Origin: Candidatus Omnitrophota bacterium
GTDB lineage: Bacteria > Omnitrophota > Gorgyraeia > Duberdicusellales > 4484-171
Assembly (NCBI GenBank): GCA_021735655.1
Contig: JAIPGM010000002.1
Span: forward strand, 258,747-322,746
Length of the DNA stretch: 64,000 bases
Direction of reading: 5' to 3'
Shown: piece after piece, positions 25,814-43,426 of the stretch
How positions within the stretch are numbered: position 1 is the stretch's first letter
How the letters are laid out: each line of letters begins with the position of its first letter
The notes under the pieces: generated by a model
Databases searched by the model: none
What the model saw: the letters and a program-made list of their open reading frames with translations, nothing else
Told to the model about the DNA's origin: nothing
Position numbers and translations under genes: made by a program

Positions 25814-27310
25814 CTAGAAAAAGAGATCTCTTTCGCCTTCTTTAATCCTTCGATAATAACTCATGAATTGGTCAAAAACCTGAGGGATGTTTTTGCGGAC
25901 TTCCTCTATTTCTTTCGTGATTACTTTCTCAGCTATATTTTTAGTTTCCTCGCTGGCAAAATCATCTAACCATTCACGAAAAGTTAAAACAGCATTTAAT
26001 TTACAAAATTTACCTTCTTGACCAGTTTTAAGTAACTCCATAATGCATTCACCCGTTCTGCCGCAGCGATAACCAGCAGTACAAAAAGAACTGATTACCC
26101 CCATTGAGGCAAACTCTCTAATCATCTCATCTAGGCTACGAGTATCAGCCAAAATAAATTGCTGTCGGGGGCTGTCTTGAGTTTTACTCTGATCGCTGTA
26201 TGAACCAATTCCTATTTTGGTAGAAGCATCAGTTTGAGTTATTCCTAGCCTGATTGAATCTCTCTTCATCTGAGGGGTTTCCCGACAAGTAATAATTAGA
26301 CCAGTATGAGGCACAGCCAGTCTAAGCACAGTAATTAACTTTTTAAACTGCTGATCCGAAACCTTATATTTTAAATTATCATTAAAAGGCGTGTTTTCTG
26401 CCGGTTCAAGGCGTGGAAAAGATATCGTATGAGCTCCGACACCAAATTTATCCTCTAATTCACGATTATGCGCAACCAAGCTCATTAGCTCAAACTTCCA
26501 ATCGTAAAGCCCAAATAAAACACCCAAGCCAACATCATCAACCCCAGCCTCAAAGGCACGATGCATCGCATAAAGTCGCCAGAAGTAATTTCCTTTTATT
26601 GTAGTTGGCGGATGAATAGTTTTATAGGTGGTCTTATGGTAAGTCTCTTGGAAAACTTGATAGGTACCAATTCCGACATCTTTTAGACGACCCAATTCCT
26701 CTATCGATAAGGGCGGAGCATTCACATTTACCCGACGAATCTGACCAACGCCATTTTTGGTTTTCTCCCGAACATTATAAATAGTACGAATTGAATCAAC
26801 CATGTAATTTATATCATTCGAAGGATGCTCTCCATAAACGACAATTAAACGTTTATGACCAATCTTACCAGCCAAAACAGCGGTTTCCTTCTCAACCTGC
26901 TTTAAGCTTAAGACTCGGCGTTCACTCTTTGTGTTAGATCGTCTGAAACCACAATAAAGACAATCATTAACACAATAATTCCCAAGATAAAGCGGAGCAA
27001 AGGTGACGATTCGATTGTCATAAACCTTTCGCTTCACCCTTAAGGCGCATTCCTTCATCAATTCTAATGTTTTAGAATCAGTTACCCTTAAAAGGGTTGC
27101 CGTCTCATCAAGAGTTAAAGTTTTAATCGCTAAGGATTTATTTAAAATGTCTTCGACTTCTTTGGAATCAGGCTCCTGAGTGCATGATAATTTCGTAAAG
27201 ATTTCTTTCTGAGGAATAAAATCCTTACCCTCAATCATATAACGCTCAATTTGGTCGCGCTTTATACGTTGAGACTCCCAACTCTGAAATTTATTAGTCT
27301 TAATTAACAT
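25814..27310 (-). CDS. HydG-like radical-SAM tyrosine lyase (ThiH family with C-terminal Cys-containing extension)
   Basis: 498 aa. Radical-SAM CxxxCxxC in ThiH/HydG context (PLYLGNYCVNDCLYCGF). Too long for ThiH (~375 aa); C-terminal ~100 aa carry SFCTAGYRCGRTGEC...C, resembling the HydG C-terminal auxiliary-cluster region. Confidence 0.65.
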   Translation of the reverse strand: MLIKTNKFQSWESQRIKRDQIERYMIEGKDFIPQKEIFTKLSCTQEPDSKEVEDILNKSLAIKTLTLDETATLLRVTDSKTLELMKECALRVKRKVYDNRIVTFAPLYLGNYCVNDCLYCGFRRSNTKSERRVLSLKQVEKETAVLAGKIGHKRLIVVYGEHPSNDINYMVDSIRTIYNVREKTKNGVGQIRRVNVNAPPLSIEELGRLKDVGIGTYQVFQETYHKTTYKTIHPPTTIKGNYFWRLYAMHRAFEAGVDDVGLGVLFGLYDWKFELMSLVAHNRELEDKFGVGAHTISFPRLEPAENTPFNDNLKYKVSDQQFKKLITVLRLAVPHTGLIITCRETPQMKRDSIRLGITQTDASTKIGIGSYSDQSKTQDSPRQQFILADTRSLDEMIREFASMGVISSFCTAGYRCGRTGECIMELLKTGQEGKFCKLNAVLTFREWLDDFASEETKNIAEKVITKEIEEVRKNIPQVFDQFMSYYRRIKEGERDLFF

Positions 27311-27952
27311 CTAACTTCCCTGCTTTACAAAAAATATTAAACTCTCTAACTCACAAGCCATATCAACGTTAGAAACAAATATATTATCAGGAACTTTCAA
27401 GGCAATTGGAGCGAAGTTAAGTATTCCCTTAATATTTGAATCGATTAACTGGTTAGCTATGTCTTGAGCTACTTCAGGCGGCGTAGCTATTATTGCTATT
27501 TTTATTCCATCTTTTTTAATCATTTCACTCAAATTATCAATAGCCTGAACTACGATACCTTTTTTTGTTTTACCAATCTTTTTCTGATCATTATCAAAAA
27601 TTGCAGTAATTTTTATATTAAACTTTGAAAAACCATCGAACCCCAACAAGGCCCCACCGACTCTACCTAGGCCTACCAAAGCAATATTCCAATCAATATG
27701 GGTTCCGACTATTTTTTGGATTTGTCCAATTAAAAAATCTACGTTATAGCCCACACCGCGCTTGCCAAATTCACCAAAATAAGACAAATCCTTTCTAAAC
27801 TGAGACGGAGTTACGTTTAAAAACTTAGTTATTTTATCCGAAGAAATAACTTCAACTCCCTGCTTTTTTATTTTTCGTAAGTTACGTAAATACAGAGTAA
27901 GCCTTCTGATCGTTTCCAAAGAAAAATGTTTCTTGTCTTTACTGTTTTTCAT
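27311..27952 (-). CDS. rex: Redox-sensing transcriptional repressor Rex
   Basis: N-terminal winged-helix domain (RLTLYLRNL...) plus Rossmann NADH-binding domain (IALVGLGRVGGALL); 213 aa. Confidence 0.85.
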   Translation of the reverse strand: MKNSKDKKHFSLETIRRLTLYLRNLRKIKKQGVEVISSDKITKFLNVTPSQFRKDLSYFGEFGKRGVGYNVDFLIGQIQKIVGTHIDWNIALVGLGRVGGALLGFDGFSKFNIKITAIFDNDQKKIGKTKKGIVVQAIDNLSEMIKKDGIKIAIIATPPEVAQDIANQLIDSNIKGILNFAPIALKVPDNIFVSNVDMACELESLIFFVKQGS

Positions 27953-29270
27953 CAGATACTCTAGTATCCCGAGCTATACCTAAATCGGTAGGCGCCCGGC
28001 CTAAAGATTTAAGTAAATTAATAGTCTCAGTAATCTGATCATTAATCTCCGCTTCGCCATAGGCCTTATTAGGATAAATTGCATAATACTTTCGATATTT
28101 ACGCGGAGTTAAATTGAGCATTACCGAATTTCCACCCGAAGACAATCCTTTCTTGCGTGCCTCTAAAGATAAGGTCTCAAAGGCTGTGGTTATAAGAATT
28201 TTAGCCGCTTCTGGATCGATTAAACGAGCCAAAGCAAGGTTTTTTAAAACTTCTTCTTCAGAAGGAGCTTTGCAATTGGCCAAGAGACTATTCGGGTGAG
28301 GCAAAAATGGCCCAAATGAGTACATCTCAGAGCCCAAAGCCTTAGTTAGATAAATATCATTTATCGTATCTTGATTAGTTTGACCAGGCAAACCAATCAA
28401 GGCACCAGTCATAACTAAATACCCTAATTCATGGGCTTTTTTTAGATGATCCAGGCGACTATCTAAAGTTTGGCCAGGATGTAATTTCTCATAGATTTTA
28501 GGATTTGAAGTTTCAAAACGCATCAACAATGCTCTTGCCCCAGCCTGATAAAGCTTAAGCAATCCATCAAGCCCGACTTCACCAAAGCTTATACAAATCA
28601 AAACTGGAACCGTTTCTTTAATTTTTCTTATAATTTCCGCTAGATCATCTATGCTATAGTGTGGGTCTTCTCCCGATTGCAAAACTAAAGCCTGGAAACC
28701 ATACTCTTTAACGGCACCAACTGCCGTCTCAATGATTTCCGCCGCTGACATTCGATAACGCATAAGATTCTGGTTGTCAGCTGAAATACCACAATATTGA
28801 CAACTCTGCTTACAAAAATTAGATATTTCGATTATCCCATGAATACAACATGAATTTTTATGGTACTTTTGACGCAAAAAGTTAGCGGTTCGATAAAGAA
28901 TATCTTGAGCCTCAGGCTTATCTAACTTAAGTAAATAAAATAACTCTTCTTTACTCAATTGAATATTTTCTAAAGCTTTATCTAAAATAAGACTTAGCTG
29001 CCTGTCGATATTTTTTTTGCTAAGATCCAAGCGAGACAATCGTAAGTCCATATCCTGAAGTTCGAAAAAAAGCTCATTCCAAGCTGCCAAGGTCTCCTCA
29101 GCCTCCTTTGGGGAAACTTTTTTAATTACAAACCCGCCTTGAGCCGACACATAATCACCGGGTTTGATATCATAAAACTCATTGATTGCTTTTTTTTCTT
29201 CACCAAAGTAATCAACCAGAACGGTTTTCCCAACTATTTCTTTTACCTTGCCAGGTATTGCATAACACAT
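27939..29270 (-). CDS. HypC-domain (N-terminal) fused to HydE-like (BioB-family) radical-SAM enzyme
   Basis: From the second Met: MCYAIPGKVKEIVGKTVLVDYFGEEKKAINEFYDIKPGDYVSAQGGFVIKKVSPKEAEETLAAWNELF, the HypC/HupF signature (MC-x-A-IP...GDYVLVHVGFAI...EA.ETL). A ~40-aa linker follows, then a HydE-type radical-SAM core (IEISNFCKQSCQYCGISADN; Fe-S/SAM motifs; ~350 aa). A single uninterrupted frame of 443-447 aa. Confidence 0.7.
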   Translation of the reverse strand: MCYAIPGKVKEIVGKTVLVDYFGEEKKAINEFYDIKPGDYVSAQGGFVIKKVSPKEAEETLAAWNELFFELQDMDLRLSRLDLSKKNIDRQLSLILDKALENIQLSKEELFYLLKLDKPEAQDILYRTANFLRQKYHKNSCCIHGIIEISNFCKQSCQYCGISADNQNLMRYRMSAAEIIETAVGAVKEYGFQALVLQSGEDPHYSIDDLAEIIRKIKETVPVLICISFGEVGLDGLLKLYQAGARALLMRFETSNPKIYEKLHPGQTLDSRLDHLKKAHELGYLVMTGALIGLPGQTNQDTINDIYLTKALGSEMYSFGPFLPHPNSLLANCKAPSEEEVLKNLALARLIDPEAAKILITTAFETLSLEARKKGLSSGGNSVMLNLTPRKYRKYYAIYPNKAYGEAEINDQITETINLLKSLGRAPTDLGIARDTRVSDEKQ

Positions 29271-29284
29271 AACAAACTCCAATT

Positions 29285-29527
29285 TTACTCTACATCAAAC
29301 GATAGCACCTGTATCACTGTTCCCGGGAAAAAAGTTAGCTCTAGCTCAGCCTTAGCACAAGGAGTCCCCTCAGCTAAAATTTTAAAGGTTTCTCTAAATG
29401 AATCCTCCTTGATCCCGTTCAGCTCACCGATTTTTATATGTATCTTAGACACTACCTTTGAGCCTTCTTTTTCAGCGTGTTCACAAATTCCTTTAATCAA
29501 TGGTTTTATGATATGGGTTTCGTGCAT
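29285..29527 (-). CDS. hypA: HypA N-terminal (nickel-binding MHE) domain protein lacking the zinc-finger domain
   Basis: Starts MHETHIIKPLIKGICEHAEKEGSKVVSKIHIKIGELNGI, matching the HypA N-domain (MHE Ni-site, ...IGELSGV...). Only 80 aa; no CxxC...CxxC zinc module. Flanking genes leave no room for it. Confidence 0.55.
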   Translation of the reverse strand: MHETHIIKPLIKGICEHAEKEGSKVVSKIHIKIGELNGIKEDSFRETFKILAEGTPCAKAELELTFFPGTVIQVLSFDVE

Positions 29528-29982
29528 GTTTTTACCTCAATAATTAAATTAGTTAATTCCTTTAATGTTTTAGCAACACTTTGTGAAATCTCATCACCAA
29601 ACTCAAGAGTTTTCGGTTGCACCCCTAAAAGAAAAATATCAGCTTCGGTTTCTTTACCCAAAAAATCTAAAAACATCCTTGGTGATAAATCATGAGTAGT
29701 GAATCCCGATTTCACGATATCTTCCTTAACTAAAATCTCATAATCTCCTGGCTCTTTACCAAGATCAACAACATCAACTATTAAAATCGTATTTGGACGT
29801 TCTTTGGTTATTTTGCCAATATAGTTTTCTGGTGCTGAACCAACATCAATACAGGTTGCATCCACTTTCTGGTAAACAGTCTCAATGAACTTAGGACCGA
29901 AAGCATCGTCACCACGCATAATATTTCCTACCCCAACGATAACGACTTTCCCTTTAAAAACATTCCGAAAAATATTATTCAT
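29506..29982 (-). CDS. hycI: [NiFe]-hydrogenase maturation endopeptidase (HycI/HyaD family)
   Basis: VVIVGVGNIMRGDDAFGPKF...DVGSAPENYIG...ILIVDVVD motifs of hydrogenase C-terminal-processing proteases; 158 aa. Confidence 0.8.
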   Translation of the reverse strand: MNNIFRNVFKGKVVIVGVGNIMRGDDAFGPKFIETVYQKVDATCIDVGSAPENYIGKITKERPNTILIVDVVDLGKEPGDYEILVKEDIVKSGFTTHDLSPRMFLDFLGKETEADIFLLGVQPKTLEFGDEISQSVAKTLKELTNLIIEVKTCTKPIS

Positions 29983-30022
29983 AGTGTAAAATAAAATTTA
30001 AATGAAACTGTCTTAGTTGATA

Positions 30023-30634
30023 TTACTCAGCAGTAAGGGTGGTTTCACGTCGACAGCGGGCGCATAGAATCTTAACTCGATCAGAACGCCCATCATCCCT
30101 TAAAGCTGAAACAATATTTTCATCTACAATACCAAGACTTTTAAGATGGGAAAGATAAAGCGTAGGACTTGAGTAGGTAAGCTCACCTAATTTTTGAGAA
30201 ATCCATTTAAGGTGATCTTTGCAGGCTATTACATCGCCGCAAACTTCACAAAGTTGTAGTTCTTTTTCTATTTGTTCTTGGGCTTGAGCGCGGTCAAAAA
30301 ATGATAACTCCCAATCAGTAGATAACTTAATACCTTGCTTATCAGCCAAACAGGCTGCTTCACACTGTCCACAAAAAATACAAGTATCAGTATAATGAAT
30401 CATCAGCCGCTTAGGATCATCTTTATTTTCAGTAATATCCTTATGAGAAATCGCTTCAACTGGGCAAACCTCTTCACAACCGCAACAACCAACACATTTT
30501 TGATCATTAAACTTCGGCTGACCGCGAAAGTTAGGATGAGCCACATGGGCCTCTTTAGGGAACTTTGACGTGTAAGGCCCCTTAATCAATGCCTTGATTG
30601 CTTCAACCAACTCTCTTAATTTTGGCAACTTCAT
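30023..30634 (-). CDS. NuoI/MbhN/HycF-like 2x[4Fe-4S] ferredoxin subunit with C-terminal Cys-rich extension
   Basis: CVGCCGCEEVCP and CIFCGQCEAACL cluster motifs in NuoI arrangement, plus extra CEVCGDVIAC and CARCRRE motifs. Confidence 0.6.
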   Translation of the reverse strand: MKLPKLRELVEAIKALIKGPYTSKFPKEAHVAHPNFRGQPKFNDQKCVGCCGCEEVCPVEAISHKDITENKDDPKRLMIHYTDTCIFCGQCEAACLADKQGIKLSTDWELSFFDRAQAQEQIEKELQLCEVCGDVIACKDHLKWISQKLGELTYSSPTLYLSHLKSLGIVDENIVSALRDDGRSDRVKILCARCRRETTLTAE

Positions 30635-30652
30635 AAATTTATCTTAAAAAAG

Positions 30653-30727
30653 AAGCGTAAAACGTAGTCTAGACTCAATATTCTTGAATCACCCGTGGCT
30701 AAAACTTTTCGTCTACGTTTACGCTTC
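30653..30727 (-). repeat. Intra-operon long-stem inverted repeat (15-16 bp arms, ~44-nt loop) between mrpG-like and nuoI-like genes
   Basis: GAAGCGTAAAACGTAG at 30653-30668 and its complement CTACGTTTACGCTTC at 30713-30727; the right arm overlaps the last codons of the mrpG-like ORF. Confidence 0.35.
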
Positions 30728-31057
30728 TCCTTCCTTATCCTCTTTATATTTATCAATTACACTACCTTCCCAAAGTTTAACCCCGGCCCGATGGGCTCCT
30801 CTGGCTACAGCATGGGCAGCTACCGGCGAGGTTAACAAAAGAAAAACCGCACAAAGAAGCGCCTTAAAGCCCGCGGCAATAAAGCCAACAATTAAAAATG
30901 TTCCAAAAAGAATACTACAAGTTCCTAAAGTAACACACTTGGTGGCTGCTTGAAGACGATTATATACATCCGGAAGTCTTACCAAACCTAAGCAACCAAC
31001 TATATCAAAAGCTAACCCACCGGAAATGAATATCAAACCAATAATATCACTCATCAA
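30719..31057 (-). CDS. Mrp antiporter subunit G-like (MbhC-like) membrane subunit
   Basis: RLPDVYNRLQAATKCVTLG...TSPVAAHAVARGA matches the MrpG/PhaG signature; 3 TM. Confidence 0.6.
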   Translation of the reverse strand: MMSDIIGLIFISGGLAFDIVGCLGLVRLPDVYNRLQAATKCVTLGTCSILFGTFLIVGFIAAGFKALLCAVFLLLTSPVAAHAVARGAHRAGVKLWEGSVIDKYKEDKEGEA

Positions 31058-31442
31058 ACCCTCTTCCCTCTAAATATTTCGAAAGAGCTAAGGTGCTAAT
31101 AAAACTTTGAAGCGCCCAAGCAATTCCAATATCCAGATACCAAGATCTTCCAGTCGAAATAGTTAAAACTGCACAAAGCCCCACAATCATAATCCCTAAA
31201 ATATCAATCGCTACAATTCTGTCGGCTCCGGTAGGACCTTTAGCAATACGATAAAGCGCCAGTACACATCCTAGAATTAGAATGTAAAGTGCCCTCCCAA
31301 CAAGACCACTATAGACGAGATTTTCAGGAAAAAGAAAACCAAAAGGCCTAAAAATAATTAAGCCTAAAACAATACTAAGGGTAGTTGCTCCAAACAGCCA
31401 ATTTAACATCTTTTTGCTTTCAGCTTTTTTCTTTTTAGCCAT
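31047..31442 (-). CDS. Mrp antiporter subunit F-like (MbhB-like) membrane subunit
   Basis: YRIAKGPTGADRIVAIDIL motif typical of MrpF/PhaF. Confidence 0.55.
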   Translation of the reverse strand: MAKKKKAESKKMLNWLFGATTLSIVLGLIIFRPFGFLFPENLVYSGLVGRALYILILGCVLALYRIAKGPTGADRIVAIDILGIMIVGLCAVLTISTGRSWYLDIGIAWALQSFISTLALSKYLEGRGFDE

Positions 31443-31447
31443 AGTAA

Positions 31448-31945
31448 TTATTCAAATATTTTTCTTAATATTTTCTCAAACCGCTCAATAATAACTTTGG
31501 TAGCAGCTTCAGTCTGAGTTTCCTTCACGTCAATCCAATGTACATATAAAACACCATCATCCTTGTCAATATCTACAGTTAAAGTTCCTGGAGTAAGTGT
31601 TATTGAATTCGCTAAAAATGTAAGCGCTGTATCTGTCTTAAGCGTAGTTTTCACCTTAACAATGCCAGGTTTTATCGGTAAATTAGGATGTAGAATCCTG
31701 TAGGCAACATCAATATTTGCTTTAAAACACTCCCATAGAAATCTCGGAAGATAATAAACAAAAAAATACCAGTATCTCAAAGGGTGCTTAAGGACATGAG
31801 GACGTTTTACAAACAAATCTCCGGTTAAAAAAGCACAAAGAGCGGCTGCGAATACACCAATAGCTAGATGCTGCCAATCCGGTACCCAGTTCAATAAGCA
31901 CCATACAACAAAGGCAACTAAAAATAAAACTATTTTTCTTTTCAT
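31448..31945 (-). CDS. Mrp antiporter subunit E-like (MbhA-like)
   Basis: 165 aa with two N-terminal TM helices and soluble C-terminus; position and size match MrpE. Confidence 0.45.
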   Translation of the reverse strand: MKRKIVLFLVAFVVWCLLNWVPDWQHLAIGVFAAALCAFLTGDLFVKRPHVLKHPLRYWYFFVYYLPRFLWECFKANIDVAYRILHPNLPIKPGIVKVKTTLKTDTALTFLANSITLTPGTLTVDIDKDDGVLYVHWIDVKETQTEAATKVIIERFEKILRKIFE

Positions 31946-33441
31946 TGGACTGCTCTGATAATATTTATTGTGTAGTTTTTTGTGCCAAGCAAAACCCCAG
32001 AGGCTTTAAGCAGGAATTGTTCTCTTATCCCCGGAAAAAATAAAAACCCACCTAAAAGGCAAACTAAAACTAAGATAATCATCGAAGCCTTCATGAAAGC
32101 AGGCACTTCAGTAATATTTTCCCACTGTTTCCTAAGATTTCCAAAAAATGCATACTTCATAACCTTGGTAAAAGAAGCAAGGGTCAAAATACTAGCCAAC
32201 ACTGCCCAAAAACCATACCAATACTGGTTGGCCTGAACACAAGCAATAATAATAATTAACTTGCTCCAAAAACCATTAAACGGCGGAATTCCAGCGATTG
32301 ACATAGAAGCTCCAAAAGCAGTAGCTGAGGTAACTGGCATTCTTTGACTTAATCCCCCCATTTTTTTTAAATCTCTGGTTCCGGTTGTGTATTCAACAGC
32401 ACCAGAATTTAAAAAAAGAAGAGATTTGAATATTGAGTGATTGAACAAATGGAATAAGCCTCCGATTATACCTAAAGGAGTGCCCAAACCTATCCCCAAA
32501 ATAACATAACCAATCTGGCTTATTGAATGATAGGCAAGCAAACGTTTCAAATCCCACTGTCCGATAGCCAAAAATACACCAACCACCATTGAGAGCGCAC
32601 CGAGCGCCATCAAAATCATTGAAAGCTGACTATTCACACCTAAAATATTAAAGAATATACGGCAAAGAGTGTATACTCCTAATGATTTAATCAATACCCC
32701 AGAAAGCATAGCTGATATTGGAGCTGGTGCTGAAGGATGAGCATCAGGAAGCCAGGCATGAAACGGCACCAAAGCTGCTTTTAAACCAAAACCCATAAGA
32801 AACAATACACTTACTAATATTAAAACATTTGGGCAGTCGGCTTGAGACAAAACTAAACCCATATCAGCCATATTTAGGGTTGAAGTGCAACTATATAGAA
32901 ATACAATACCTAAAAGAATAAATAATGACCCTACGGTACTCATCAGGGCATATTTAAAGGCGGCTTCAAGCTCATGGCGTTCAGTTCCAAAAGCAACCAG
33001 AGCATAACTAGCAACAGAGGCAATCTCTAAAAAAACAAAAAGGTTAAATATGTCGCCAGTTATCAAAACCCCGTTCATCCCTCCCAACATCAATAGAAAT
33101 AAGGTGTAAAATTTCCATTTAGCGGTGAACTTTTCCATGTAGTTAATTGAAAAAAGAGCTACACAAAAAGCAACTAAATTAACCGTAACTAACATAAAAC
33201 TAGTTAGACCGTCTAAGACAAAAGTTATCCCGATTGGCGGCTTCCAAGATCCAGCAGCATAAACCAACACTCCATGCTCAGCCACAAGTTTTACACTGTA
33301 AAGCGACAAAAATAAAAGAGCTGTTGTGCATAAATTACCAATTAAATCCGGCAGCCATTTACTTTTTTTACCAAACAAAACAGTTAAAAAGGCACCCGAA
33401 AGACAAACTACAACAAAAATTGGTATAATATTAGAACTCAT
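31942..33441 (-). CDS. MrpD/NuoN-like proton-pumping antiporter subunit
   Basis: 499 aa, ~14 TM, conserved antiporter-fold motifs (…AHSSISQIGYV…, NSGAVEY). Confidence 0.75.
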   Translation of the reverse strand: MSSNIIPIFVVVCLSGAFLTVLFGKKSKWLPDLIGNLCTTALLFLSLYSVKLVAEHGVLVYAAGSWKPPIGITFVLDGLTSFMLVTVNLVAFCVALFSINYMEKFTAKWKFYTLFLLMLGGMNGVLITGDIFNLFVFLEIASVASYALVAFGTERHELEAAFKYALMSTVGSLFILLGIVFLYSCTSTLNMADMGLVLSQADCPNVLILVSVLFLMGFGLKAALVPFHAWLPDAHPSAPAPISAMLSGVLIKSLGVYTLCRIFFNILGVNSQLSMILMALGALSMVVGVFLAIGQWDLKRLLAYHSISQIGYVILGIGLGTPLGIIGGLFHLFNHSIFKSLLFLNSGAVEYTTGTRDLKKMGGLSQRMPVTSATAFGASMSIAGIPPFNGFWSKLIIIIACVQANQYWYGFWAVLASILTLASFTKVMKYAFFGNLRKQWENITEVPAFMKASMIILVLVCLLGGFLFFPGIREQFLLKASGVLLGTKNYTINIIRAVQ

Positions 33442-33443
33442 AT

Positions 33444-34780: not shown

Positions 34781-34787
34781 ATTTAAG

Positions 34788-36446
34788 TTACTTTAAAAGT
34801 ATATAAAAAAGTATCCCCATACCTAAAAGACACCAGGACAAATAAGTAGATAAAATGCCATTATGCAAATAACGCAAAATACTGTTAAAGCCAAAAGTAA
34901 TTTTACTACCGACTTCATAAATATCGAATAATTTCTTATTAGCTAAACTATAGATAACCTTTAACAGGCCCAACTCTTTGATTGTGTTATAAAAATCAGT
35001 TCCTGAAACTCTCATCTCGGGATATTTTTCAGTGCTTTCTCCGCCCATAAAAATATTAACCTGGCGACTCTTTGAAACTGTGCCCAAAAGATAAACTATT
35101 AGACCAATGACCATGCCAGCAAGAATCAAAGCCGTAGCTAAACTTGCATTCCAGACTCCGGAAAACTCTACTGGCTGCCAAATAACCGGAAAGATAAAAA
35201 ACTTAAGCGGAAGCCGGTAAGCAAATACACCAAAAACTACACATAGTAAGGCTAAAATTGCTCCCGGTATCCACATCGCTAGCCCAACCTCTTTTTTCTG
35301 ATCTTTACTGAGTGCTTTTACGGTTGTGCTTTCTTGACCCAAAAATACAGCATGAACAAGTTTCATGAAACTTGCCAAAGTTAAGGCACTTCCAAACATG
35401 GCTGAAACTAACCAAACGACCCATAACCCACCACTGTTTTTAGCCGTCTCAATGATACCCTGGTAGATCATCCATTTAGAAACAAAACCATTAAATGGCG
35501 GAACCCCAGAGATAGCAAATGAAGCAATCAAAAAAGTAATAAAAGTAATCGGCATATATTTAGCAAGACCGCCAAGTTTATCTAAATTAGTAGTTTTGGT
35601 CCTTTTTTCTACAGAGCCACTGGTTAAAAATAAACAAGACTTATAAATCGCATTATTCAGCATATGAAATAGTCCACCGGCAATACCGATAATTGTACCC
35701 GTACCAATACCTAAAATCATATAACCAACTTGACTTACCGCATGATAACCAAGGAGTCTCTTTAAGTCATGTTGGACTAAAGCCATCATAACCGCAGCTA
35801 TAATAGTAAAGCTACCGATAAACATCAAAAATGTATTCATGCTTAAACCTAAACGAAACATTTCCAAGGAAATTCTAATTAAAAGATATATTCCCAAAAG
35901 TTTGTCCAAAGAAGCAGGCAAATAAGCCGCAACCGGAGTTGGTGAGTCTTCAGCTGCGTCAGGAACCCAGGTATGAAAAGGCATAGCCCCGGCTTTAGCA
36001 AAAGCTCCGACCGCCAAACAAAGATAGGCAAAAGTAGCCACCTTAGAAGTCAATGGTATTGATATTAAATCCATCTCGAATAAACCGGTAAGTTTCCAAA
36101 TTAAGGCAACTCCCAAAAGCATTAAAGCATCGGTTCCACCAATTATAATAAATGCTTTCTTTGCCGTAGCTGAGCTATTATCCTTTTTACCAAAGCCAAT
36201 TAAAAGATAAAGAAGCAACCCCAAGAATCCCCAGAAAACCATGAACAGAATTAAATTATTGGCAAAAACCACACCCAAAGAAGCAATCAAAGTAAAAAAG
36301 ATATAAAGGTAGTAACGTGAAATTCCACGTTGGGCACGCATGTACCCCATCGAATATACAGTTACCAAAATAGAAAAAAACCAAATAAATATTCCGACAA
36401 ATATCGACAAAGCATCAAATCTAAAATAATTCGCTAAAAAATTCAT
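34788..36446 (-). CDS. MrpA/NuoL-like antiporter subunit (MbhH-like)
   Basis: 552 aa, ~16 TM, NuoL/MrpA family motifs (…HAVSQVGYMILGIG…, WVPDA). Confidence 0.75.
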   Translation of the reverse strand: MNFLANYFRFDALSIFVGIFIWFFSILVTVYSMGYMRAQRGISRYYLYIFFTLIASLGVVFANNLILFMVFWGFLGLLLYLLIGFGKKDNSSATAKKAFIIIGGTDALMLLGVALIWKLTGLFEMDLISIPLTSKVATFAYLCLAVGAFAKAGAMPFHTWVPDAAEDSPTPVAAYLPASLDKLLGIYLLIRISLEMFRLGLSMNTFLMFIGSFTIIAAVMMALVQHDLKRLLGYHAVSQVGYMILGIGTGTIIGIAGGLFHMLNNAIYKSCLFLTSGSVEKRTKTTNLDKLGGLAKYMPITFITFLIASFAISGVPPFNGFVSKWMIYQGIIETAKNSGGLWVVWLVSAMFGSALTLASFMKLVHAVFLGQESTTVKALSKDQKKEVGLAMWIPGAILALLCVVFGVFAYRLPLKFFIFPVIWQPVEFSGVWNASLATALILAGMVIGLIVYLLGTVSKSRQVNIFMGGESTEKYPEMRVSGTDFYNTIKELGLLKVIYSLANKKLFDIYEVGSKITFGFNSILRYLHNGILSTYLSWCLLGMGILFYILLK

Positions 36447-37630
36447 TTTATGCCTAGTTTACTTTTTATCTTTTCGGTTTTACTTTGTGAAAGGCGAACT
36501 AAATCCTCACCGTTATATATTTTTTTACCCTTAGTGTTACGTACCGCCACTCTCTCAGTACAACAATAACAAGGATCAATGGACGCTAAAATTATCGTTG
36601 CATCAGAAATCGTCTCGCCAACCACAGTTGCCTTATAGGTCGGTAAATTCATAAAAGTAGGTGCTCTTACTTTGTGACGAGCCGGTCGATTGGTCCCATC
36701 GCTTTTCACATAATGAAAACATTCACCCCGCGGCGCCTCAATATGACCGATACCTTCACCTGAAGGAATACTTTTAATCTTAGCATCAATTTCTGTATCC
36801 GGAAGGTTTAAAAGGCAATACTTAACCATATCTATCGATTCAAAAGTCTCTAAAATTCTTACTACCGCTTTATCGAAAACATCGCCATTTTTAGTCACAA
36901 TCATATTCCAGTTAAACTGATCATATGCCCCATAAGGAGAATTTTTACGTAGATCTCTGGCCACCCCCGAAGCCCGAGATACCGGACCGAGAGCACAAAA
37001 GTTAATTGCCTCATCCTTAGTGAGGATACCTATTCCTTTAGTCCTAGCATGTAACACCGGGTCATCGATTACTGCCTTTTTAAGCATTTCAAGAGTCGGG
37101 ATAATCGAATCTATCTTTTTTATCGCAAAAGGTATATCTTCTTTTTTTATGTCTCGCCGAACCCCTCCCGGCTTAAACATAGCATAGTTGTTGCGATTTC
37201 CCGAAAGTGCCTCCATAACATCAAGGATTTCCTCACGCAACTTCCAAGCCCACATATAAACAGTATTGTAACCTAAAAAATGTCCGGCAAGACCCAACCA
37301 TAAAAGATGTGAATGAATACGTTCTCCCTCAGCGATAATTGTTCGGATATATTTAGCCCTCATTGGCACTTCTAGAGGGATAACATCCTCAACTGCCCGA
37401 GTATAAGCATAAGGATGACTGGTTGAACAAATACCACAGATTCTCTCAATTACAAAAGTAGATTGGTCGAAGGTTTTTCGCTCAGAAAGCTTTTCAATGC
37501 CGCGATGGTTATAACCAATCTGAACATCGATATCAACAACTGTCTCCCCATCTACAGTTAAGCTGAAAAACTCAGGCTCTTCCTGTAAAGGGTGATATGG
37601 TCCGATTGGAACTATAGTTCGTTTTCCCAT
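36443..37630 (-). CDS. [NiFe]-hydrogenase large (catalytic) subunit, group 4 (Mbh/Ech type)
   Basis: N-terminal L1 motif ERICGICSTSH (RxCGxCxxxH) and C-terminal L2 motif DPCYCCTER (DPCxxCxxR), followed by a ~35-aa extension of the kind removed by HycI-type proteases; NuoD-like fold, 395 aa. Confidence 0.85.
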   Translation of the reverse strand: MGKRTIVPIGPYHPLQEEPEFFSLTVDGETVVDIDVQIGYNHRGIEKLSERKTFDQSTFVIERICGICSTSHPYAYTRAVEDVIPLEVPMRAKYIRTIIAEGERIHSHLLWLGLAGHFLGYNTVYMWAWKLREEILDVMEALSGNRNNYAMFKPGGVRRDIKKEDIPFAIKKIDSIIPTLEMLKKAVIDDPVLHARTKGIGILTKDEAINFCALGPVSRASGVARDLRKNSPYGAYDQFNWNMIVTKNGDVFDKAVVRILETFESIDMVKYCLLNLPDTEIDAKIKSIPSGEGIGHIEAPRGECFHYVKSDGTNRPARHKVRAPTFMNLPTYKATVVGETISDATIILASIDPCYCCTERVAVRNTKGKKIYNGEDLVRLSQSKTEKIKSKLGIK

Positions 37631-38103
37631 TATAATCCTCGATCTCTAATTGATGAGTCGTCCCACTCTTGATAATCGCGTCTCAAAGGATATACACCTT
37701 GTGGCCACTCATCGGGCAAAAGCAACCGCTTCAACTCTGGATGACCGCGAAAATTGACTCCTAACATTTCAGCTATCTCACGTTCAATCCAATTAGCACC
37801 TTCAAATATTGGGGCTAATGAATCTATTTCTAATTTGCTCTTATCCAACTTAACCCGGAAAGAAACTACTAAATTTATATCTTCAAAGGTAAAATGATAA
37901 AGAATTTCTATATGTTTAAATGTATCTACTCCCGAAGCAATATTGAATCTGGCCCCCAAATTTTTAAAAACATAGGTCGCAACCTTAACAATCGCCTGAG
38001 GTTTAATCTCAATATAGACCCGAGTTAAGGTCTTATCGAAAATATCTAAAATATCTTCGTCGAATCTTTTCTTTAAATCTTTAATAACTTCGCTTCTGGT
38101 CAT
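37630..38103 (-). CDS. NuoC/MbhK-like hydrogenase subunit
   Basis: 157 aa with NuoC-like (30 kDa subunit) core motif (FEGANWIEREIAEMLGVNFRGHP). Confidence 0.7.
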   Translation of the reverse strand: MTRSEVIKDLKKRFDEDILDIFDKTLTRVYIEIKPQAIVKVATYVFKNLGARFNIASGVDTFKHIEILYHFTFEDINLVVSFRVKLDKSKLEIDSLAPIFEGANWIEREIAEMLGVNFRGHPELKRLLLPDEWPQGVYPLRRDYQEWDDSSIRDRGL

Positions 38104-38540
38104 TTTGCTTGAGGGTTTCCAGCCCCACTTAATTTATCGATTAACTTAACAACCCCGGCAATAATCGCCTCTGGTTTCGGCGGGCACCCAGGTATATATA
38201 CGTCTACCGGAATAATTTTATCAACTGGCAAAGGACAGTTATAGCTATGAATAAACATACCTCGCGACAAAGAGCACTCACCAACAGCCACTACTACACA
38301 AGGCTTCGGCATCTGCTCATATACTTCTTTAATCCGAGGAATGCACTTTCGATTAGCAGAACCAGTTACTAAAAGCACGTCAGCATGTTTTATGCTTCCG
38401 GCTAAAAGCATGCCAAACCTTTCGATATCAAAGCGTGGGGTTAAACAATCCAATATTTCAATATCGCAATTATTGCAACTACCAGTTGAAAGATGAAAAA
38501 CCCATGGTGACTTGAGTAATGCTTTAAGTTTTATGCTCAT
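38100..38540 (-). CDS. [NiFe]-hydrogenase small subunit (NuoB/MbhJ-like, proximal [4Fe-4S])
   Basis: CNNC...GxCxxxG...PGCPP motifs (STGSCNNCDIE, VAVGECS, YIPGCPPKPE). Likely true start is the internal Met (MSIKLK...), avoiding overlap with the upstream gene. Confidence 0.8.
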   Translation of the reverse strand: MSIKLKALLKSPWVFHLSTGSCNNCDIEILDCLTPRFDIERFGMLLAGSIKHADVLLVTGSANRKCIPRIKEVYEQMPKPCVVVAVGECSLSRGMFIHSYNCPLPVDKIIPVDVYIPGCPPKPEAIIAGVVKLIDKLSGAGNPQAK

Positions 38541-39460
38541 AAACCCTTTAAGGCTAAAATAACTGCGATTATAGCAATAATCAACATTGGCCCCCAAAAA
38601 AATCTTATTGCCTGATCAATTCTAACTCTAGGATTAGTATTACGAATAACGGTGATCAAGGCAACCAAACCAACATACCTCAACACCCCGTATATAAGAT
38701 TTAAGCCGTTTAGTCTTAACCCACCAATAAAAGTAATCATTATAAAGAAAGGCAAGACAAAGAACAACATATTTTTCATAAGTTTGTATACCGCAAGCGG
38801 GGCTCCCGAATACTCAACTAACGGTCCACCAATAATTTCGGTCTCAGCTTCAGGAATATCAAAAGGCACTAAGGCTAGTTTTGCCTGTACACACATAATA
38901 ATTACAATAAAAGCCAAAAACCCCGACCAGCTTCCTAAGATTACGCCATTTTGAGCCTGATAAGTGATAATTTCACCTAAACGCAAGCTAAACCCGCTTT
39001 GAATAACCGGAACTAAAACCGCTAGAATAAATGGCAATTCATAACTTAAAACTAATTTCATTTCTCGTGATGCACCAATACTAGCTAAAGGATTGCCTGA
39101 AGCAAAGCCTCCGATAATTATGCTTATTGAAGGAATAGCCAATAAATAAACTACAACAACAATATCACCAACAAAGGTCCTCAGCGGATTAAAATTATTA
39201 AACCAAAGCACCGTAGACACAACAATAACACTCCCTAAACCAATAATCGGAGCGCTCAAAAAACTAAACTGAGAAGCGCCTTTAGGAACCAAAGTCTCTT
39301 TTCCAAGAAGCTTCACCAAATCAATAAGCGGCTGTAGGATTGGCGGCCCAACGCGATACTGAACTCGAGCGGTAACTTTACGGTCAACCCAGCTAGTTAA
39401 CAAACCAATAATGGCGGTTAACAAGAATCCGAAAATAAAAAGATAAACTAAATAAATCAT
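38537..39460 (-). CDS. NuoH/MbhM/HycD-like membrane subunit
   Basis: 307 aa, 8 TM, NuoH-like loops (…GGPLVEYSGAPLA…, EAETEIIGG). Confidence 0.75.
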   Translation of the reverse strand: MIYLVYLFIFGFLLTAIIGLLTSWVDRKVTARVQYRVGPPILQPLIDLVKLLGKETLVPKGASQFSFLSAPIIGLGSVIVVSTVLWFNNFNPLRTFVGDIVVVVYLLAIPSISIIIGGFASGNPLASIGASREMKLVLSYELPFILAVLVPVIQSGFSLRLGEIITYQAQNGVILGSWSGFLAFIVIIMCVQAKLALVPFDIPEAETEIIGGPLVEYSGAPLAVYKLMKNMLFFVLPFFIMITFIGGLRLNGLNLIYGVLRYVGLVALITVIRNTNPRVRIDQAIRFFWGPMLIIAIIAVILALKGL

Positions 39461-40023
39461 ACTTTTTCTCTATCCCAATGAGTAGAATGTACTATTAAAT
39501 TGTCACCAACTAAAAATGAATCTTTGGTTAATAAATCATCCGAATTTACTAATTTTAATGCTCCGTATGGGCATGATTTTATGCAAAGCGGTTCATTTTT
39601 TTTATCTCTTCGATCAAAACAAAAATCACAATTATGAATTAAATAAGGCACATGCTCAGGATAAATGGTTCCGTAAGGGCAAGCATGAGAACAAGTTTTG
39701 CAACTTACGCAACGCATATTATGCCTAATCAAAAGGTTGTCTTTTTCGGTTTGTTGTTCCAAAGCCTCAAATGGGCAAGCATTAACACAGTGAGGTTCTT
39801 GGCATCTACGACAAACCAAAGCATAAGTTGCCAATTCAGCTACTGAAACTATTCCATTATTTATCGGATCTTGAGTGTGGTAAAAATAGCTGCACTCTAA
39901 CTTACATTTTTTGCATTCTCCGGCCGCACAAATATCAAGATCAACAAAAAGCCGTTGACCACTATCAGATTTAGCTTCGGTATTTAATTTTCCTTGATGT
40001 AGTTGTTCGGCACTTGTATCCAT
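39457..40023 (-). CDS. Polyferredoxin (HycB/CooF-like, multiple [4Fe-4S] clusters)
   Basis: At least four Cys clusters of CxxCxxCxxxCP type (CRRCQEPHCVNACP, CVSCKTCSHACP, CDFCFD...CIKSCP). Confidence 0.65.
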   Translation of the reverse strand: MDTSAEQLHQGKLNTEAKSDSGQRLFVDLDICAAGECKKCKLECSYFYHTQDPINNGIVSVAELATYALVCRRCQEPHCVNACPFEALEQQTEKDNLLIRHNMRCVSCKTCSHACPYGTIYPEHVPYLIHNCDFCFDRRDKKNEPLCIKSCPYGALKLVNSDDLLTKDSFLVGDNLIVHSTHWDREKV

Positions 40024-40030
40024 AATAGCT

Positions 40031-40855
40031 CTAATCCCAAATATTAGGAAAATTCTTTATTTTGTCGTAAGTAAACACTGGTCCATCTTTGCAGGCATAA
40101 TAAGTCCCTAGCCGACAATGACCGCATTTACCAATTCCACAAGACATATTTTTTTCCATTGAAAGATAGATATTCTTCTCCTTAAAACCCAACTCAAGCA
40201 ATTTTTTAGTAGAAAACTTCATGGCGATTGGCGGCCCGCAAACAATAGCTATTGCCTCAGGGCAATTCATATCTAAATCATCCAAAATTGTAGTAACAAC
40301 ACCTACGTTACCTTTCCAATCAGGGCTAGCTTTATCAACAGTAAGTCTTAAATTTAAATCATCTCGCTTTGCCCAGCCGGCTATCTCAGTTTTATAGAGT
40401 AGCTCCTGTGAGGTTTTACAGCCACCCCGAAAAGACAGCTTCTTAAACTCCCCGCTTCGGGCAAAAAACTCATACATCAAACTACGCAAAGGAGCAAATC
40501 CACATCCACCACCGACGACAACGATTTCCTTACCTTTAAATTCATCAATCGGGTAACCAGTCCCAAAAGGGCCTCTCACTCCAATCAAATCGCCTTTTTT
40601 AAGCTGATGAACTTTATCGGTAACCTTGCCAACTTTCATTACCGTGACTTCCATTACATCTCTCACTGATGGCCTCGATGAAGGTGTAAATGGCGCCTCA
40701 CCCACGCCGGGAACAGTTAATTCGATAAATTGACCGGTCTCAAAACCCAAAGGCTCTTTAGGACGAAAACGTATGGTTTTAATCGTTGGCGTTTCGGTTA
40801 TTACATCAAGAACTTCGGCCTCAATCGATCTGTAAGGATTCTCGATTTTATGCAT
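40031..40855 (-). CDS. FAD/NAD(P)H-binding oxidoreductase, hydrogenase/sulfite-reductase gamma-subunit-like (PyrK/AsrB fold) with C-terminal [2Fe-2S] motif
   Basis: FNR-like domains (RFRPKEPLGFETGQFIEL; GPFGTGYP; VVVGGGCGFAPLRS) and C-terminal CGIGKCGHCRLG 2Fe-2S motif. Confidence 0.65.
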   Translation of the reverse strand: MHKIENPYRSIEAEVLDVITETPTIKTIRFRPKEPLGFETGQFIELTVPGVGEAPFTPSSRPSVRDVMEVTVMKVGKVTDKVHQLKKGDLIGVRGPFGTGYPIDEFKGKEIVVVGGGCGFAPLRSLMYEFFARSGEFKKLSFRGGCKTSQELLYKTEIAGWAKRDDLNLRLTVDKASPDWKGNVGVVTTILDDLDMNCPEAIAIVCGPPIAMKFSTKKLLELGFKEKNIYLSMEKNMSCGIGKCGHCRLGTYYACKDGPVFTYDKIKNFPNIWD

Positions 40856-41873
40856 TATCCACCAACTTCTTTAAGACTTTTCGAATATCAATTTTAGCCG
40901 GGCAAGCTGTTATACAACGGCCACAGCCGGTACAAGCATACTCAGCGGCCACCTTGGGAAAAAAATCAAATTTTTTCTCAAACCTATTACGCAATCTCAT
41001 CCAAAGCCTCTCTCGAGGATTGGCTCCGCCAGCAACCCGAGCAAAATCTTTTATCATACAAGAATCCCAAATGCGTAAACGCTCCATCTTGTCTTTATCT
41101 TTTTGATCATACAAAAGAAAACAATGGCAGGTTGGGCAAATTGCATTACAGGCTCCACATTCAACGCAAGTTTTTGCTTCGTCTTCCCAAATTTTAGACT
41201 CATAGTTTTTCTGAACCACATCTTTGAAGCTGCTTTGGTCAGGAACGGTATTTTTACTTAGGTTAGCGTTAGCTTCTCCAGTTATTTTTTCACGCTTCTT
41301 ATCTCTGGTAACAACTAGATCTTCTCGAGTTTGACGAAAAAGAAGAGTATATTGCTTCAGAATACTCTCACCTTTATCGGATCCGCTTTCAACAACAAAG
41401 CCATCATCAACCACAGAAAGATTTAGATCAAAATTATCTTTAGGATACGGTTTTAGACCTAAAGCCGCACAAAAGCAAGTATCAATTACGCAAGTGCAAT
41501 CAGCTGAAATAATAAGGCTATCCTGACGTAACTTTAAATAAAAAGGATCCTGATAATCGGGATTATCAAAAACATAGTCTTGAATTTTAAAACCTTTCAG
41601 ATCACAAGCCTTGACTCCGACAATAGCAAAAGGCTTACTCGGAGACTGCGGAAGATCCGGACTAAAACCAGAAGCTACCTTCTGACGAGCCTTCAAAAAA
41701 AATGATTTTACCGGCTCAAAAGCCCTTACCTCGCCAACAACGAATTCACTAGTCGAGCTATCGAACTTATCGTAAAACCGCTGCTGACCTTTTTTGACCG
41801 GAACAAATACCTGATAATCTTTATTTAGGTTTTCAAGAAATTTAGAAAAATTATCGGAAGAGATATAATACAT
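40848..41873 (-). CDS. Fe-S subunit, sulfhydrogenase-beta/AsrA-like (two ferredoxin-type [4Fe-4S] motifs)
   Basis: CVECGACNAICPTCHC and CTGCGRCITACP motifs; pairs with the downstream gamma-like subunit as in HydBG/AsrAB modules. Confidence 0.55.
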   Translation of the reverse strand: MYYISSDNFSKFLENLNKDYQVFVPVKKGQQRFYDKFDSSTSEFVVGEVRAFEPVKSFFLKARQKVASGFSPDLPQSPSKPFAIVGVKACDLKGFKIQDYVFDNPDYQDPFYLKLRQDSLIISADCTCVIDTCFCAALGLKPYPKDNFDLNLSVVDDGFVVESGSDKGESILKQYTLLFRQTREDLVVTRDKKREKITGEANANLSKNTVPDQSSFKDVVQKNYESKIWEDEAKTCVECGACNAICPTCHCFLLYDQKDKDKMERLRIWDSCMIKDFARVAGGANPRERLWMRLRNRFEKKFDFFPKVAAEYACTGCGRCITACPAKIDIRKVLKKLVDNA

Positions 41874-41919
41874 CAGAAGTCCTTGTTCTGTTTATGATTG
41901 ATACTTAAATTAACCATAC

Positions 41920-41940
41920 TTTGTGATTTTATTCACAAAG
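41920..41940. promoter_or_regulatory. Perfect TGTGA-N6-TCACA palindrome (Rex/CRP-type operator) upstream of the hydrogenase operon
   Basis: cTTTGTGAttttatTCACAAAg, an 8-bp perfect inverted repeat ~50 nt upstream of the first operon gene. It matches the Rex box consensus TTGTGAA-N4-TTCACAA, and Rex is encoded inside the operon. Confidence 0.5.
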
Positions 41941-43423: not shown

Positions 43424-43426
43424 TAG

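Follow-up and report, generated by a model that had tools for sequence, protein, structure and literature searches.

We have analysed an operon encoded on the minus strand of a 64-kb stretch of a Candidatus Omnitrophota genome (contig JAIPGM010000002.1), the whole of which is referred to here as the window. The operon contains the structural genes of a group-4 [NiFe] hydrogenase, followed by genes for a fusion of the [NiFe] chaperone HypC with a HydE-like radical S-adenosylmethionine (SAM) enzyme (HypC::HydE) and for a variant of HydG, HydE and HydG being families of [FeFe] hydrogenase maturation. Comparison of these proteins and their surroundings in related genomes suggests that a tyrosine-derived Fe-CO/CN route probably replaces HypCDEF in maturation of the [NiFe] enzyme.

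Gene content of the operon

In the list of open reading frames (ORFs) of the window, 21 genes located between 41873 and 25814, all on the minus strand and joined by short overlaps or gaps, constitute one operon. Gene products were assigned by profile searches (Pfam, NCBIfam) of the ORF translations, and the features are as follows, with genes numbered in operon order.

41921..41938, no strand assigned: Rex operator TTGTGA-N6-TCACAA (TTGTGATTTTATTCACAA), placed 48 nt before the first ATG, with a TTGACA hexamer upstream of it at 41980-41975
40848..41873, minus strand: gene 1, AsrA-like or sulfhydrogenase-beta-like Fe-S subunit, 341 residues (Pfam Fer4_22, 108 bits)
40031..40855, minus strand: gene 2, AsrB-like or sulfhydrogenase-gamma-like subunit with FAD, NAD(P) and [2Fe-2S] domains, 274 residues (Pfam NAD_binding_1, DHODB_Fe-S_bind, FAD_binding_6)
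39457..40023, minus strand: gene 3, CooF-like polyferredoxin, 188 residues (Pfam Fer4_11)
38537..39460, minus strand: gene 4, NuoH/HycD-like membrane subunit (Pfam NADHdh, 223.8 bits)
38100..38597, minus strand: gene 5, NuoB-like [NiFe] hydrogenase small subunit (Pfam Oxidored_q6; CNNC and GCPP read in the translation)
37630..38103, minus strand: gene 6, NuoC-like subunit (Pfam Complex1_30kDa)
36443..37630, minus strand: gene 7, group-4 [NiFe] large subunit, 395 residues (Pfam NiFeSe_Hases, Complex1_49kDa; RICGICSTSH, DPCYCCTER and a 34-residue C-terminal extension read in the translation)
30719..36446, minus strand: genes 8-15, Mrp-antiporter-like module of eight membrane subunits, namely MrpA-like (552 residues), MbhD/E, MnhB, NuoK/MnhC, MrpD (499 residues), MnhE, MrpF and MnhG (Pfam)
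30640..30722, minus strand: long stem-loop and T-run in the gap between mnhG and the nuoI-like gene (sequence)
30023..30634, minus strand: gene 16, NuoI/HycF-like 2x[4Fe-4S] ferredoxin subunit, 203 residues (NCBIfam formate hydrogenlyase Fe-S subunit, 86 bits; NuoI, 64 bits)
29506..29982, minus strand: gene 17, HycI-type endopeptidase for large-subunit processing (NCBIfam TIGR00142, 113.7 bits; TIGR00072, 103 bits, cut-off 47)
29285..29527, minus strand: gene 18, short HypA, 80 residues, with the MHE nickel-binding N-terminus and without the zinc domain (Pfam HypA, positions 1-70 of 112)
29040..29270, minus strand: gene 19, HypC domain of the fusion, beginning MCYAIPG, with Gln at the HypC His51 position (Pfam HypC and alignments)
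27939..29039, minus strand: gene 19, linker helix and HydE-type radical-SAM domain of the fusion, with CX3CX2C preceded by an invariant NSCC-x-H (match to Thermotoga maritima HydE, Foldseek, motif statistics)
27311..27952, minus strand: gene 20, Rex redox-sensing repressor (NCBIfam NF003995, 257.6 bits, cut-off 126)
25814..27310, minus strand: gene 21, variant HydG, 498 residues, with CX3CX2C, a His aligned with the dangler-iron ligand His265 and a C-terminal C-x5-C-x5-C-x13-C (profile and structure-sequence alignment)

The enzyme is a Mrp-linked group-4 [NiFe] hydrogenase, as both the L1 and L2 nickel motifs, a NuoB-like small subunit, NuoH- and NuoI-like subunits and an Mrp module are present. 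A first-pass annotation, made from the sequence without database searches, had described a co-directional string containing a genuine group-4 enzyme, the two large-subunit motifs and cleavable-type tail, the CNNC and GCPP motifs, a stem-loop behind mnhG and the order nuoI-like, hycI, short hypA, HypC::HydE-like fusion, rex and HydG-like gene. Profile matches and translations agree with all of these, and the stem-loop is real. HydA, HydF, HypD, HypE and HypF had not been visible to it in the 64 kb; tblastn of the window likewise gave no match to Escherichia coli HypB, HypD, HypE or HypF, to an Omnitrophota HydA or to a HydF. The subgroup label 4g is borrowed from work on Omnitrophota (PMC8542988), by which the window enzyme would be 4g-like.

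The AsrA-, AsrB- and CooF-like front module, noted earlier for Saganbacteria (PMC6349859), suggests NAD(P)H as an electron partner of the membrane-bound hydrogenase. HypA begins MHETHII, so that the MHE nickel site is present, and lacks the CxxC...CxxC zinc domain as the protein stops at residue 80. This 80-residue form is kept in 55 related loci, in operons of the radical-SAM type described here and in operons with canonical Hyp genes alike, indicating that it is not a pseudogene.

The variant HydG and the HypC::HydE fusion

The 498-residue product of the last gene belongs to the HydG family, scoring 448.5 bits with the HydG model TIGR03955 (cut-off 312.15) and 246.1 bits with ThiH (cut-off 380), and aligns over its full length, including the C-terminal domain, with Thermoanaerobacter italicus HydG (4WCX; 431 bits). 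The radical-SAM motif CX3CX2C is present as CVNDCLYC, and a His aligns with His265 of the T. italicus protein, the ligand of the dangler iron (PMC8855341). Retention of this His and of the C-terminal domain makes tyrosine-derived Fe-CO/CN chemistry a natural expectation for the window protein. The first-pass assignment as HydG-like was therefore upheld at the level of the family but not in one feature, as the canonical CX2CX22C motif of the auxiliary [4Fe-4S] cluster is replaced by FCTAGYRCGRTGECIM-x13-C, the second Cys having become Gly and new Cys residues occurring at +6 and +12. The altered motif is found in 31/31 HydGs at least 60% identical to that of the window, the remaining HydGs keeping CX2CX22C, and its carriers form one clade nested inside HydG in a neighbour-joining tree without support values. 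HydGs with the canonical motif occur directly behind the fusion in many loci with a group-3b-type hydrogenase, those of Saganbacteria included. An early-branching relative of the variant (L091, 2122-3627), in which the motif reads CTAGYRC and the third new Cys is absent, lies alone, its neighbours being unrelated genes that encode a MatE transporter, a porin and a tRNA synthetase. The genomic context of the early-branching variants P0121 and P0123 was uninformative.

The fusion had been annotated as a gene of 447 residues, an architecture that was confirmed with an altered start: translation most likely begins at ATG 29270, giving 443 residues headed by the MCYAIPG invariant in homologues, and not at TTG 29282. 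Residues 1-67, counted from this ATG, constitute the HypC domain, with 55.9 bits for the Pfam HypC/HupF model PF01455 (cut-off 28.5), 43.3 bits for its NCBIfam counterpart TIGR00074 (cut-off 48) and a match to Thermococcus kodakarensis HypC at 3.5e-12. Residues 96-428 match T. maritima HydE (220 bits), the score with the HydE model TIGR03956, 248.9 bits, being marginally below the cut-off of 254.6, and the radical-SAM motif reads CKQSCQYC. An AlphaFold model of the fusion (predicted local distance difference test, pLDDT, 88; predicted template-modelling score, pTM, 0.87) was compared with known structures by Foldseek, and its predicted radical-SAM fold is closer to HydE (3IIZ; template-modelling score, TM, 0.93; root-mean-square deviation 1.5 A; 38% identity) than to PylB or BioB. 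The match to the HcgA/HmdB model TIGR03957 is weak (64.5 bits, cut-off 321). NCBIfam contains no model for the HypC::HydE fusion, and public names are inconsistent.

The names 'biotin synthase' and '2-iminoacetate synthase', which several sources give to relatives, and the fact that Pfam sees only Radical_SAM and BATS domains would fit two vitamin or amino-acid enzymes of the ThiH, BioB or PylB type that lie in the operon by happenstance, a reading to which we give next to no credence. The curated cut-offs are missed by a wide margin (ThiH 246 bits against 380; BioB 100 and 37 against 225; PylB 165 against 348), the 498-residue protein has a C-terminal HydG domain of ~90 residues that is absent from ThiH, the fold of the fusion is nearest HydE, and thiamine or biotin genes are not adjacent. 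ThiH, BioB or PylB identity was rejected on the basis of the cut-offs and the fold.

Fusion to HydE is associated with correlated residue changes in HypC. Among 228 fused sequences a Met-Cys start is found in ~210, and the N-terminal MC[YL][AT]IPG is retained. Conversely, the position equivalent to His51, numbered as in E. coli HypC and which we take to be the HypD-associated residue, is Gln in 197 and His in 0, in the context VSAQGGFVI. The stand-alone HypC of sister operons containing canonical Hyp genes keeps this His (VLVHAGFAI). Thus, the fused domain has kept the iron-carrying Cys and lost the HypD-associated His. The HydE domain is altered as well: C-[VI]-H-[GA] occurs just before barrel strand 1 in 206/206 readable fused domains, the corresponding sequence in canonical HydE being H-x-R-[AG].

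In three lineages the two proteins are further joined into HypC-HydE-HydG single polypeptides of 881-921 residues, each inside a [NiFe] cluster (L016, 9998-12766; L088, 10001-12646; L089, 10001-12721). The first of these is a closed Omnitrophota chromosome (CP070797.1), in which HypC, HydE and the variant HydG form one ORF of 921 residues. Besides this ORF, a search of 50%-identity representatives detected triple fusions with the canonical HydG motif (P0126, P0130). About ten triple-fusion protein clusters exist, the two examined both lying inside 3b-type [NiFe] clusters, and triple fusions occur in seemingly small Patescibacteria-type genomes.

Genomic context and exchange with canonical Hyp genes

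The HypC plus radical-SAM architecture is present in >120 protein clusters at 59-80% identity, mostly from Omnitrophota metagenome-assembled genomes (MAGs). A scan of one genome per species detected the fusion in 347 genomes, which represent at least seven phyla. The best 80 of the 347 genomes include Omnitrophota, Margulisiibacteriota/Saganbacteria, Caldatribacterium, Spirochaetota/Brevinematales, Elusimicrobia and Auribacterota; three genomes with the fusion are closed (CP070797.1, CP070684.1, NZ_CP189974.1). Related loci were readable for ±10 kb around each fusion, and the window proteins and E. coli HypA-F were mapped onto them, giving 82 fusion loci for context and 90 fusion-centred loci within a total of 170 loci.

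Two contexts were observed. In Type I loci a collinear group-4 Mrp-linked hydrogenase is followed by the NuoI-like subunit, HycI, 80-residue HypA and the fusion, then by Rex and a HydG 60-79% identical to that of the window. In Type II loci a group-3b-type hydrogenase (beta, gamma, small and large subunits) precedes HycI and the fusion, usually with hydG thereafter. Of the 63 loci with sufficient upstream sequence, 53 have a [NiFe] hydrogenase immediately before the fusion, of group 4 in 20 cases and of the group 3b type in 33, and hydG lies <=1.5 kb downstream in 35/63 by automatic count, with two more overlapping the end of the fusion gene. Recurrence of the gene order beside group-4 hydrogenases, and in dozens of related loci, places the arrangement in the window far beyond chance. 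E. coli HypD, HypE and HypF had no match in any of the 90 fusion-centred loci. The 80-residue HypA, fusion and variant HydG also travel as a unit of their own, as on a closed 1.28-Mb Omnitrophota chromosome (L073, 9751-12807) where there are no hydrogenase genes within 10 kb. In the closest relatives of the window an extra gene of 124 residues (Pfam Pro_CA_2) is located between hypA and the fusion (L004, 9511-9885; also L005 and L006), and a His-rich membrane protein resembling a nickel/cobalt transporter recurs ~2 kb upstream of the fusion near 3b-type clusters (L032, L034, L038, L043, L047, L053).

The relation of the fusion to the canonical pathway is seen in orthologous operons, for which 80 further operons were gathered from metagenome contigs with the NuoI-like subunit as bait. 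Operons with collinear structural genes and a large subunit 81-84% identical to that of the window have two alternative endings after HycI and the 80-residue HypA. Cassette A, the HypC::HydE fusion, is found in the window, L104, L160 and 20 genome loci, and cassette B, comprising a C-terminal-half HypF (HypF'), HypC, HypD and HypE, in L106, L107, L109 and L110, with family scores for HypD (455 bits), HypE (425 bits) and HypC (79 bits) that each exceed the cut-off. The fusion or hydG together with HypD, HypE or HypF was observed in 0/170 loci, and where HypD is adjacent there is neither fusion nor hydG. In a neighbour-joining tree, without support values, of the concatenated large subunit, MrpD and NuoI-like protein, operons with the two cassettes interleave, for example L104 (A) being sister to L107 (B). 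This mutually exclusive displacement in place argues that the radical-SAM cassette and HypF'-HypC-HypD-HypE perform the same job. The HypF' of the Hyp-type sister operons corresponds only to the C-terminal, Kae1-like half of HypF (357 residues, profile positions 392-739; L106, 9728-10801, also L107, L109 and L110), the acylphosphatase, zinc-finger and YrdC-like parts being absent.

The same exchange bears on the principal alternative, in which the radical-SAM pair only assists the canonical pathway by supplying one ligand, for example CO under anaerobic conditions, while HypD, HypE and HypF encoded elsewhere make the cyanides and the scaffold. In its favour, a review treats the source of CO for the Hyp pathway under anoxia as an open question (PMC12134894), free CO is released by HydG in vitro (PMC8855341), the maturation genes need not adjoin those of the hydrogenase (L100, L117) and one or more Omnitrophota genomes do encode canonical Hyp proteins (supplement 6 of PMC10066038). 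Against an assisting role, the cassette lies in the very slot of HypF'CDE with no co-occurrence in the 170 loci, the HypD-adjacent operons are without fusion and hydG, the fused HypC has lost a His that the stand-alone HypC keeps, and triple fusions are found in seemingly small Patescibacteria-type genomes. We consider assistance alone unlikely, if still deserving of attention, and replacement of HypCDEF the better account of the exchange.

A second alternative would make the fusion and HydG ordinary [FeFe]-hydrogenase maturases whose hydA lies elsewhere, the HypC-like domain acting as an iron carrier and the [NiFe] genes being adjacent through a shared Rex regulon. H-cluster assembly is the only process for which HydG and HydE are known (PMC8855341), some Omnitrophota contain 4g and A3 hydrogenases together (PMC10066038) and hydA is located within 10 kb in 8/82 fusion loci, all of Type II. 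Moreover, in L056 (14-3424) the variant hydG lies between hydF, of which the C-terminal part is visible, and an unfused hydE of canonical type, directly upstream of the 3b hydrogenase and fusion, so that the variant HydG may also serve an [FeFe] enzyme. Conservation next to hydA was nevertheless the exception, and a separate hydG accompanies hydA in 5/8 of the hydA-linked loci (L024, L028, L053, L060, L067), with the canonical C-terminal motif readable in four and the L067 gene cut by the locus end. An unfused hydE is also visible in three of these (L024, L028, L053), where the fusion has remained downstream of HycI in the [NiFe] cluster. In L028, for example, the 3b hydrogenase is succeeded by HycI, the fusion, Rex, a histidine kinase, NuoF, HydA, NuoE, a canonical HydG and an unfused HydE, the fusion in this locus being a surplus paralogue joined to the [NiFe] genes. 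Outside L053 and L056 no hydF was seen, apart from a possible remnant in L040, and neither hydA nor hydF was found in the 64-kb window or within ±10 kb in any Type I locus. The L040 ORF (12757-13014, 85 residues), positioned after hydG, matches nothing of HydF but the extreme C-terminus and could be a remnant or a mini-scaffold.

In addition, the cassette swaps places with the [NiFe]-specific HypF'CDE genes, is accompanied by HypA and HycI, and occurs in lineages reported without [FeFe] enzymes (PMC8542988, PMC6349859). A survey of Saganbacteria reports [NiFe] hydrogenases only, with no [FeFe] enzyme (PMC6349859), and three Saganbacteria loci (L042, L055, L086) contain a 3b hydrogenase, the fusion and hydG. 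Omnitrophota MAGs from Ace Lake have a single identifiable hydrogenase each, in some cases only group 4g (Williams et al., PMC8542988), no [FeFe] hydrogenase being reported in the MAGs carrying only 4g; the supplements of that study contain no hyp or hyd entries. Combined, these comparisons have weakened a role confined to [FeFe] maturation, which we regard as improbable, appreciably more so than assistance to the Hyp pathway.

Proposed maturation route, its parallels and control of the operon

In its fullest form the proposal is that the whole Fe(CN)2(CO) unit would be derived from tyrosine by the variant HydG and the HypC-tethered HydE, without HypD, HypE, HypF or carbamoyl phosphate, a version that we favour by a small margin. 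That HydG/HydE-type chemistry might load HypC for a [NiFe] enzyme had been put forward in the first-pass annotation, and the suggestion gains support from the 53/63 loci with a [NiFe] hydrogenase upstream, the triple fusions, the cassette swap and the loss of the His from HypC. Gene content and families, conservation of the architecture, the fusions, the mutually exclusive cassette slot and the correlated HypC changes were observed directly, and from them we infer every step of the mechanism by analogy with the HydG to HydE sequence established for [FeFe] hydrogenases (PMC8855341). The variant HydG would cleave tyrosine by radical-SAM chemistry and assemble Fe-bound CO and CN at the C-terminal auxiliary cluster and dangler-iron site. 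The HydE-type domain would take the organometallic iron unit and strip or activate it, in the manner of HydE acting on the [Fe(Cys)(CO)2(CN)] synthon. Cys2 of the HypC domain, to which the HydE-type domain is covalently joined, would receive the unit next, with the new Cys-x-His before barrel strand 1 as a possible relay. The HypC domain would then insert the iron unit into the apo large subunit, after which the short HypA would supply nickel and HycI remove the C-terminal tail. HypC::HydE and HydG would in this way stand in for HypF, HypC, HypD and HypE, and carbamoyl phosphate and the HypCD scaffold would be dispensable.

Several observations weigh against this proposal, in addition to the hydA-linked loci and the gene group of L056. 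The altered C-terminal motif of HydG is a weak point of the mechanism, and known HydG chemistry yields Fe(CO)2(CN), not the Fe(CO)(CN)2 required at the [NiFe] site. Caldatribacterium loci carry the fusion without hydG within 10 kb which, together with L056, indicates that the fusion is not strictly paired with a particular HydG; the early-branching variant relative in L091 is solitary, with no hydrogenase genes around it. Some orthologous operons (e.g. L100, L117) have neither cassette within 10 kb, showing that maturation genes can sit elsewhere in the genome, and the readable scope for hypD, hypE, hypF, hydA and hydF was ±10 kb per locus plus the 64-kb window. Support for the function of the cassette is comparative sequence evidence, and all trees are neighbour-joining trees without support values.

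Compared with [FeFe] maturation by HydE, HydG and HydF, the putative route would use the same two radical-SAM families, with a HydE fold at 38% identity and a HydG in which the C-terminal domain and the His265-aligned His are kept. It differs in that hydF and hydA are absent from the window and window-type loci, the genes lie within [NiFe] operons beside HycI and HypA, HydE is fused to HypC and has C-x-H for H-x-R, and HydG lacks the second Cys of CX2CX22C and contains two new Cys residues. In the HypA-F pathway the NiFe(CN)2CO cofactor is produced on a HypCD scaffold with cyanide derived from carbamoyl phosphate via HypEF. Both would have one kind of client, namely a [NiFe] large subunit bearing a C-terminal tail, and HycI, HypA and a HypC module with its essential N-terminal Cys are shared, the position of the fusion in the operon being equal to that of HypF'-HypC-HypD-HypE in orthologous operons. 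In contrast, neither the locus nor any of the 90 fusion-centred loci contains HypD, HypE or HypF, the fused HypC is without its conserved His, and the source of the ligands would be tyrosine rather than carbamoyl phosphate.

Other systems offer partial parallels. HypX synthesises CO aerobically from formyl-tetrahydrofolate for [NiFe] enzymes that still need HypCDEF; it resembles the proposed route as an accessory supply of a diatomic ligand to the [NiFe] site outside HypCDEF, but is an unrelated protein family and an aerobic add-on providing CO only. HcgA/HmdB, the radical-SAM enzyme of FeGP cofactor synthesis for [Fe]-hydrogenase, is a case of the same HydE/BioB-like radical-SAM clade serving a non-[FeFe] hydrogenase, with the differences that the match is weak (TIGR03957, 64.5 against 321), and that cofactor and gene context are not the same. 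Fused [FeFe] maturases, namely algal HydEF and the HydF-HydG (P0127) and HydE-HydG (P0124) fusions found among the sequences examined, are precedents for consecutive maturases forming one polypeptide; they stay within the [FeFe] set, whereas the partner in the window is a [NiFe] chaperone. Archaeal hybrid [FeFe]-[NiFe] complexes also mix two hydrogenase worlds in one gene cluster (PMC11216029), but there the catalytic subunits of group 3 enzymes are hybrid, whereas in the window the enzyme is purely [NiFe] and the maturation would be hybrid.

The pathway appears to be undescribed, as the first-pass annotation had supposed: full-text literature searches found no paper linking HydG or HydE to [NiFe] maturation and none mentioning a HypC-HydE fusion. 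A 2025 review of the [NiFe] cofactor holds that six Hyp proteins are needed for every cofactor and names the anaerobic origin of CO as the most pressing question, mentioning neither HydG nor tyrosine (PMC12134894), and according to a 2021 perspective on [FeFe] maturation no radical-SAM enzyme takes part in making the [NiFe] centre (PMC8855341). If the proposed route is correct, it would represent a second, independent biosynthetic route to the [NiFe] cofactor and the first defined anaerobic source of its CO ligand. The generalisation that this centre needs no radical-SAM enzyme would be overturned, two genes, or one in the triple fusions, replacing HypF, HypC, HypD and HypE; the CO question would be directly testable through tyrosine labelling, the evolution of both hydrogenase maturation systems would be linked and heterologous [NiFe] hydrogenase production would require a much smaller gene set. 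Annotation is affected in hundreds of genomes, most of them MAGs, belonging to Omnitrophota, Margulisiibacteriota/Saganbacteria, Atribacterota, Spirochaetota, Elusimicrobiota, Auribacterota and Patescibacteria, in which labels such as HydE, HydG, biotin synthase or HypC can imply an [FeFe] capacity that may not exist.

The operon is probably controlled by Rex and autoregulated in response to the NADH/NAD+ ratio, as the rex gene lies between the fusion and hydG and an operator is positioned upstream of the first gene. Both the Rex family score (257.6 against 126) and the cognate operator before the operon are consistent with this assignment, the site at 41921-41938 being the sole perfect TTGTGA-N6-TCACAA in the 64 kb, where 0.14 are expected by chance. 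The stem-loop at 30640-30722, in which GCGTAAACGTAG...CTACGTTTTACGC form a long-range stem followed by the T-run, has the structural and Mrp genes on one side and the nuoI-like and maturation genes on the other and may be an internal attenuator or internal terminator. It was not called by a simple terminator scan, and simple promoter and terminator scans of the window were at background level. The upstream flank encodes heptosyltransferases and the downstream flank an M29-like peptidase, an aldo-keto reductase and an epimerase, all unrelated to the hydrogenase, so that the operon limits match the coordinates 41873-25814. The upstream heptosyltransferases are three tandem family-9 glycosyltransferase genes at 42392-45359, just in front of the operon.

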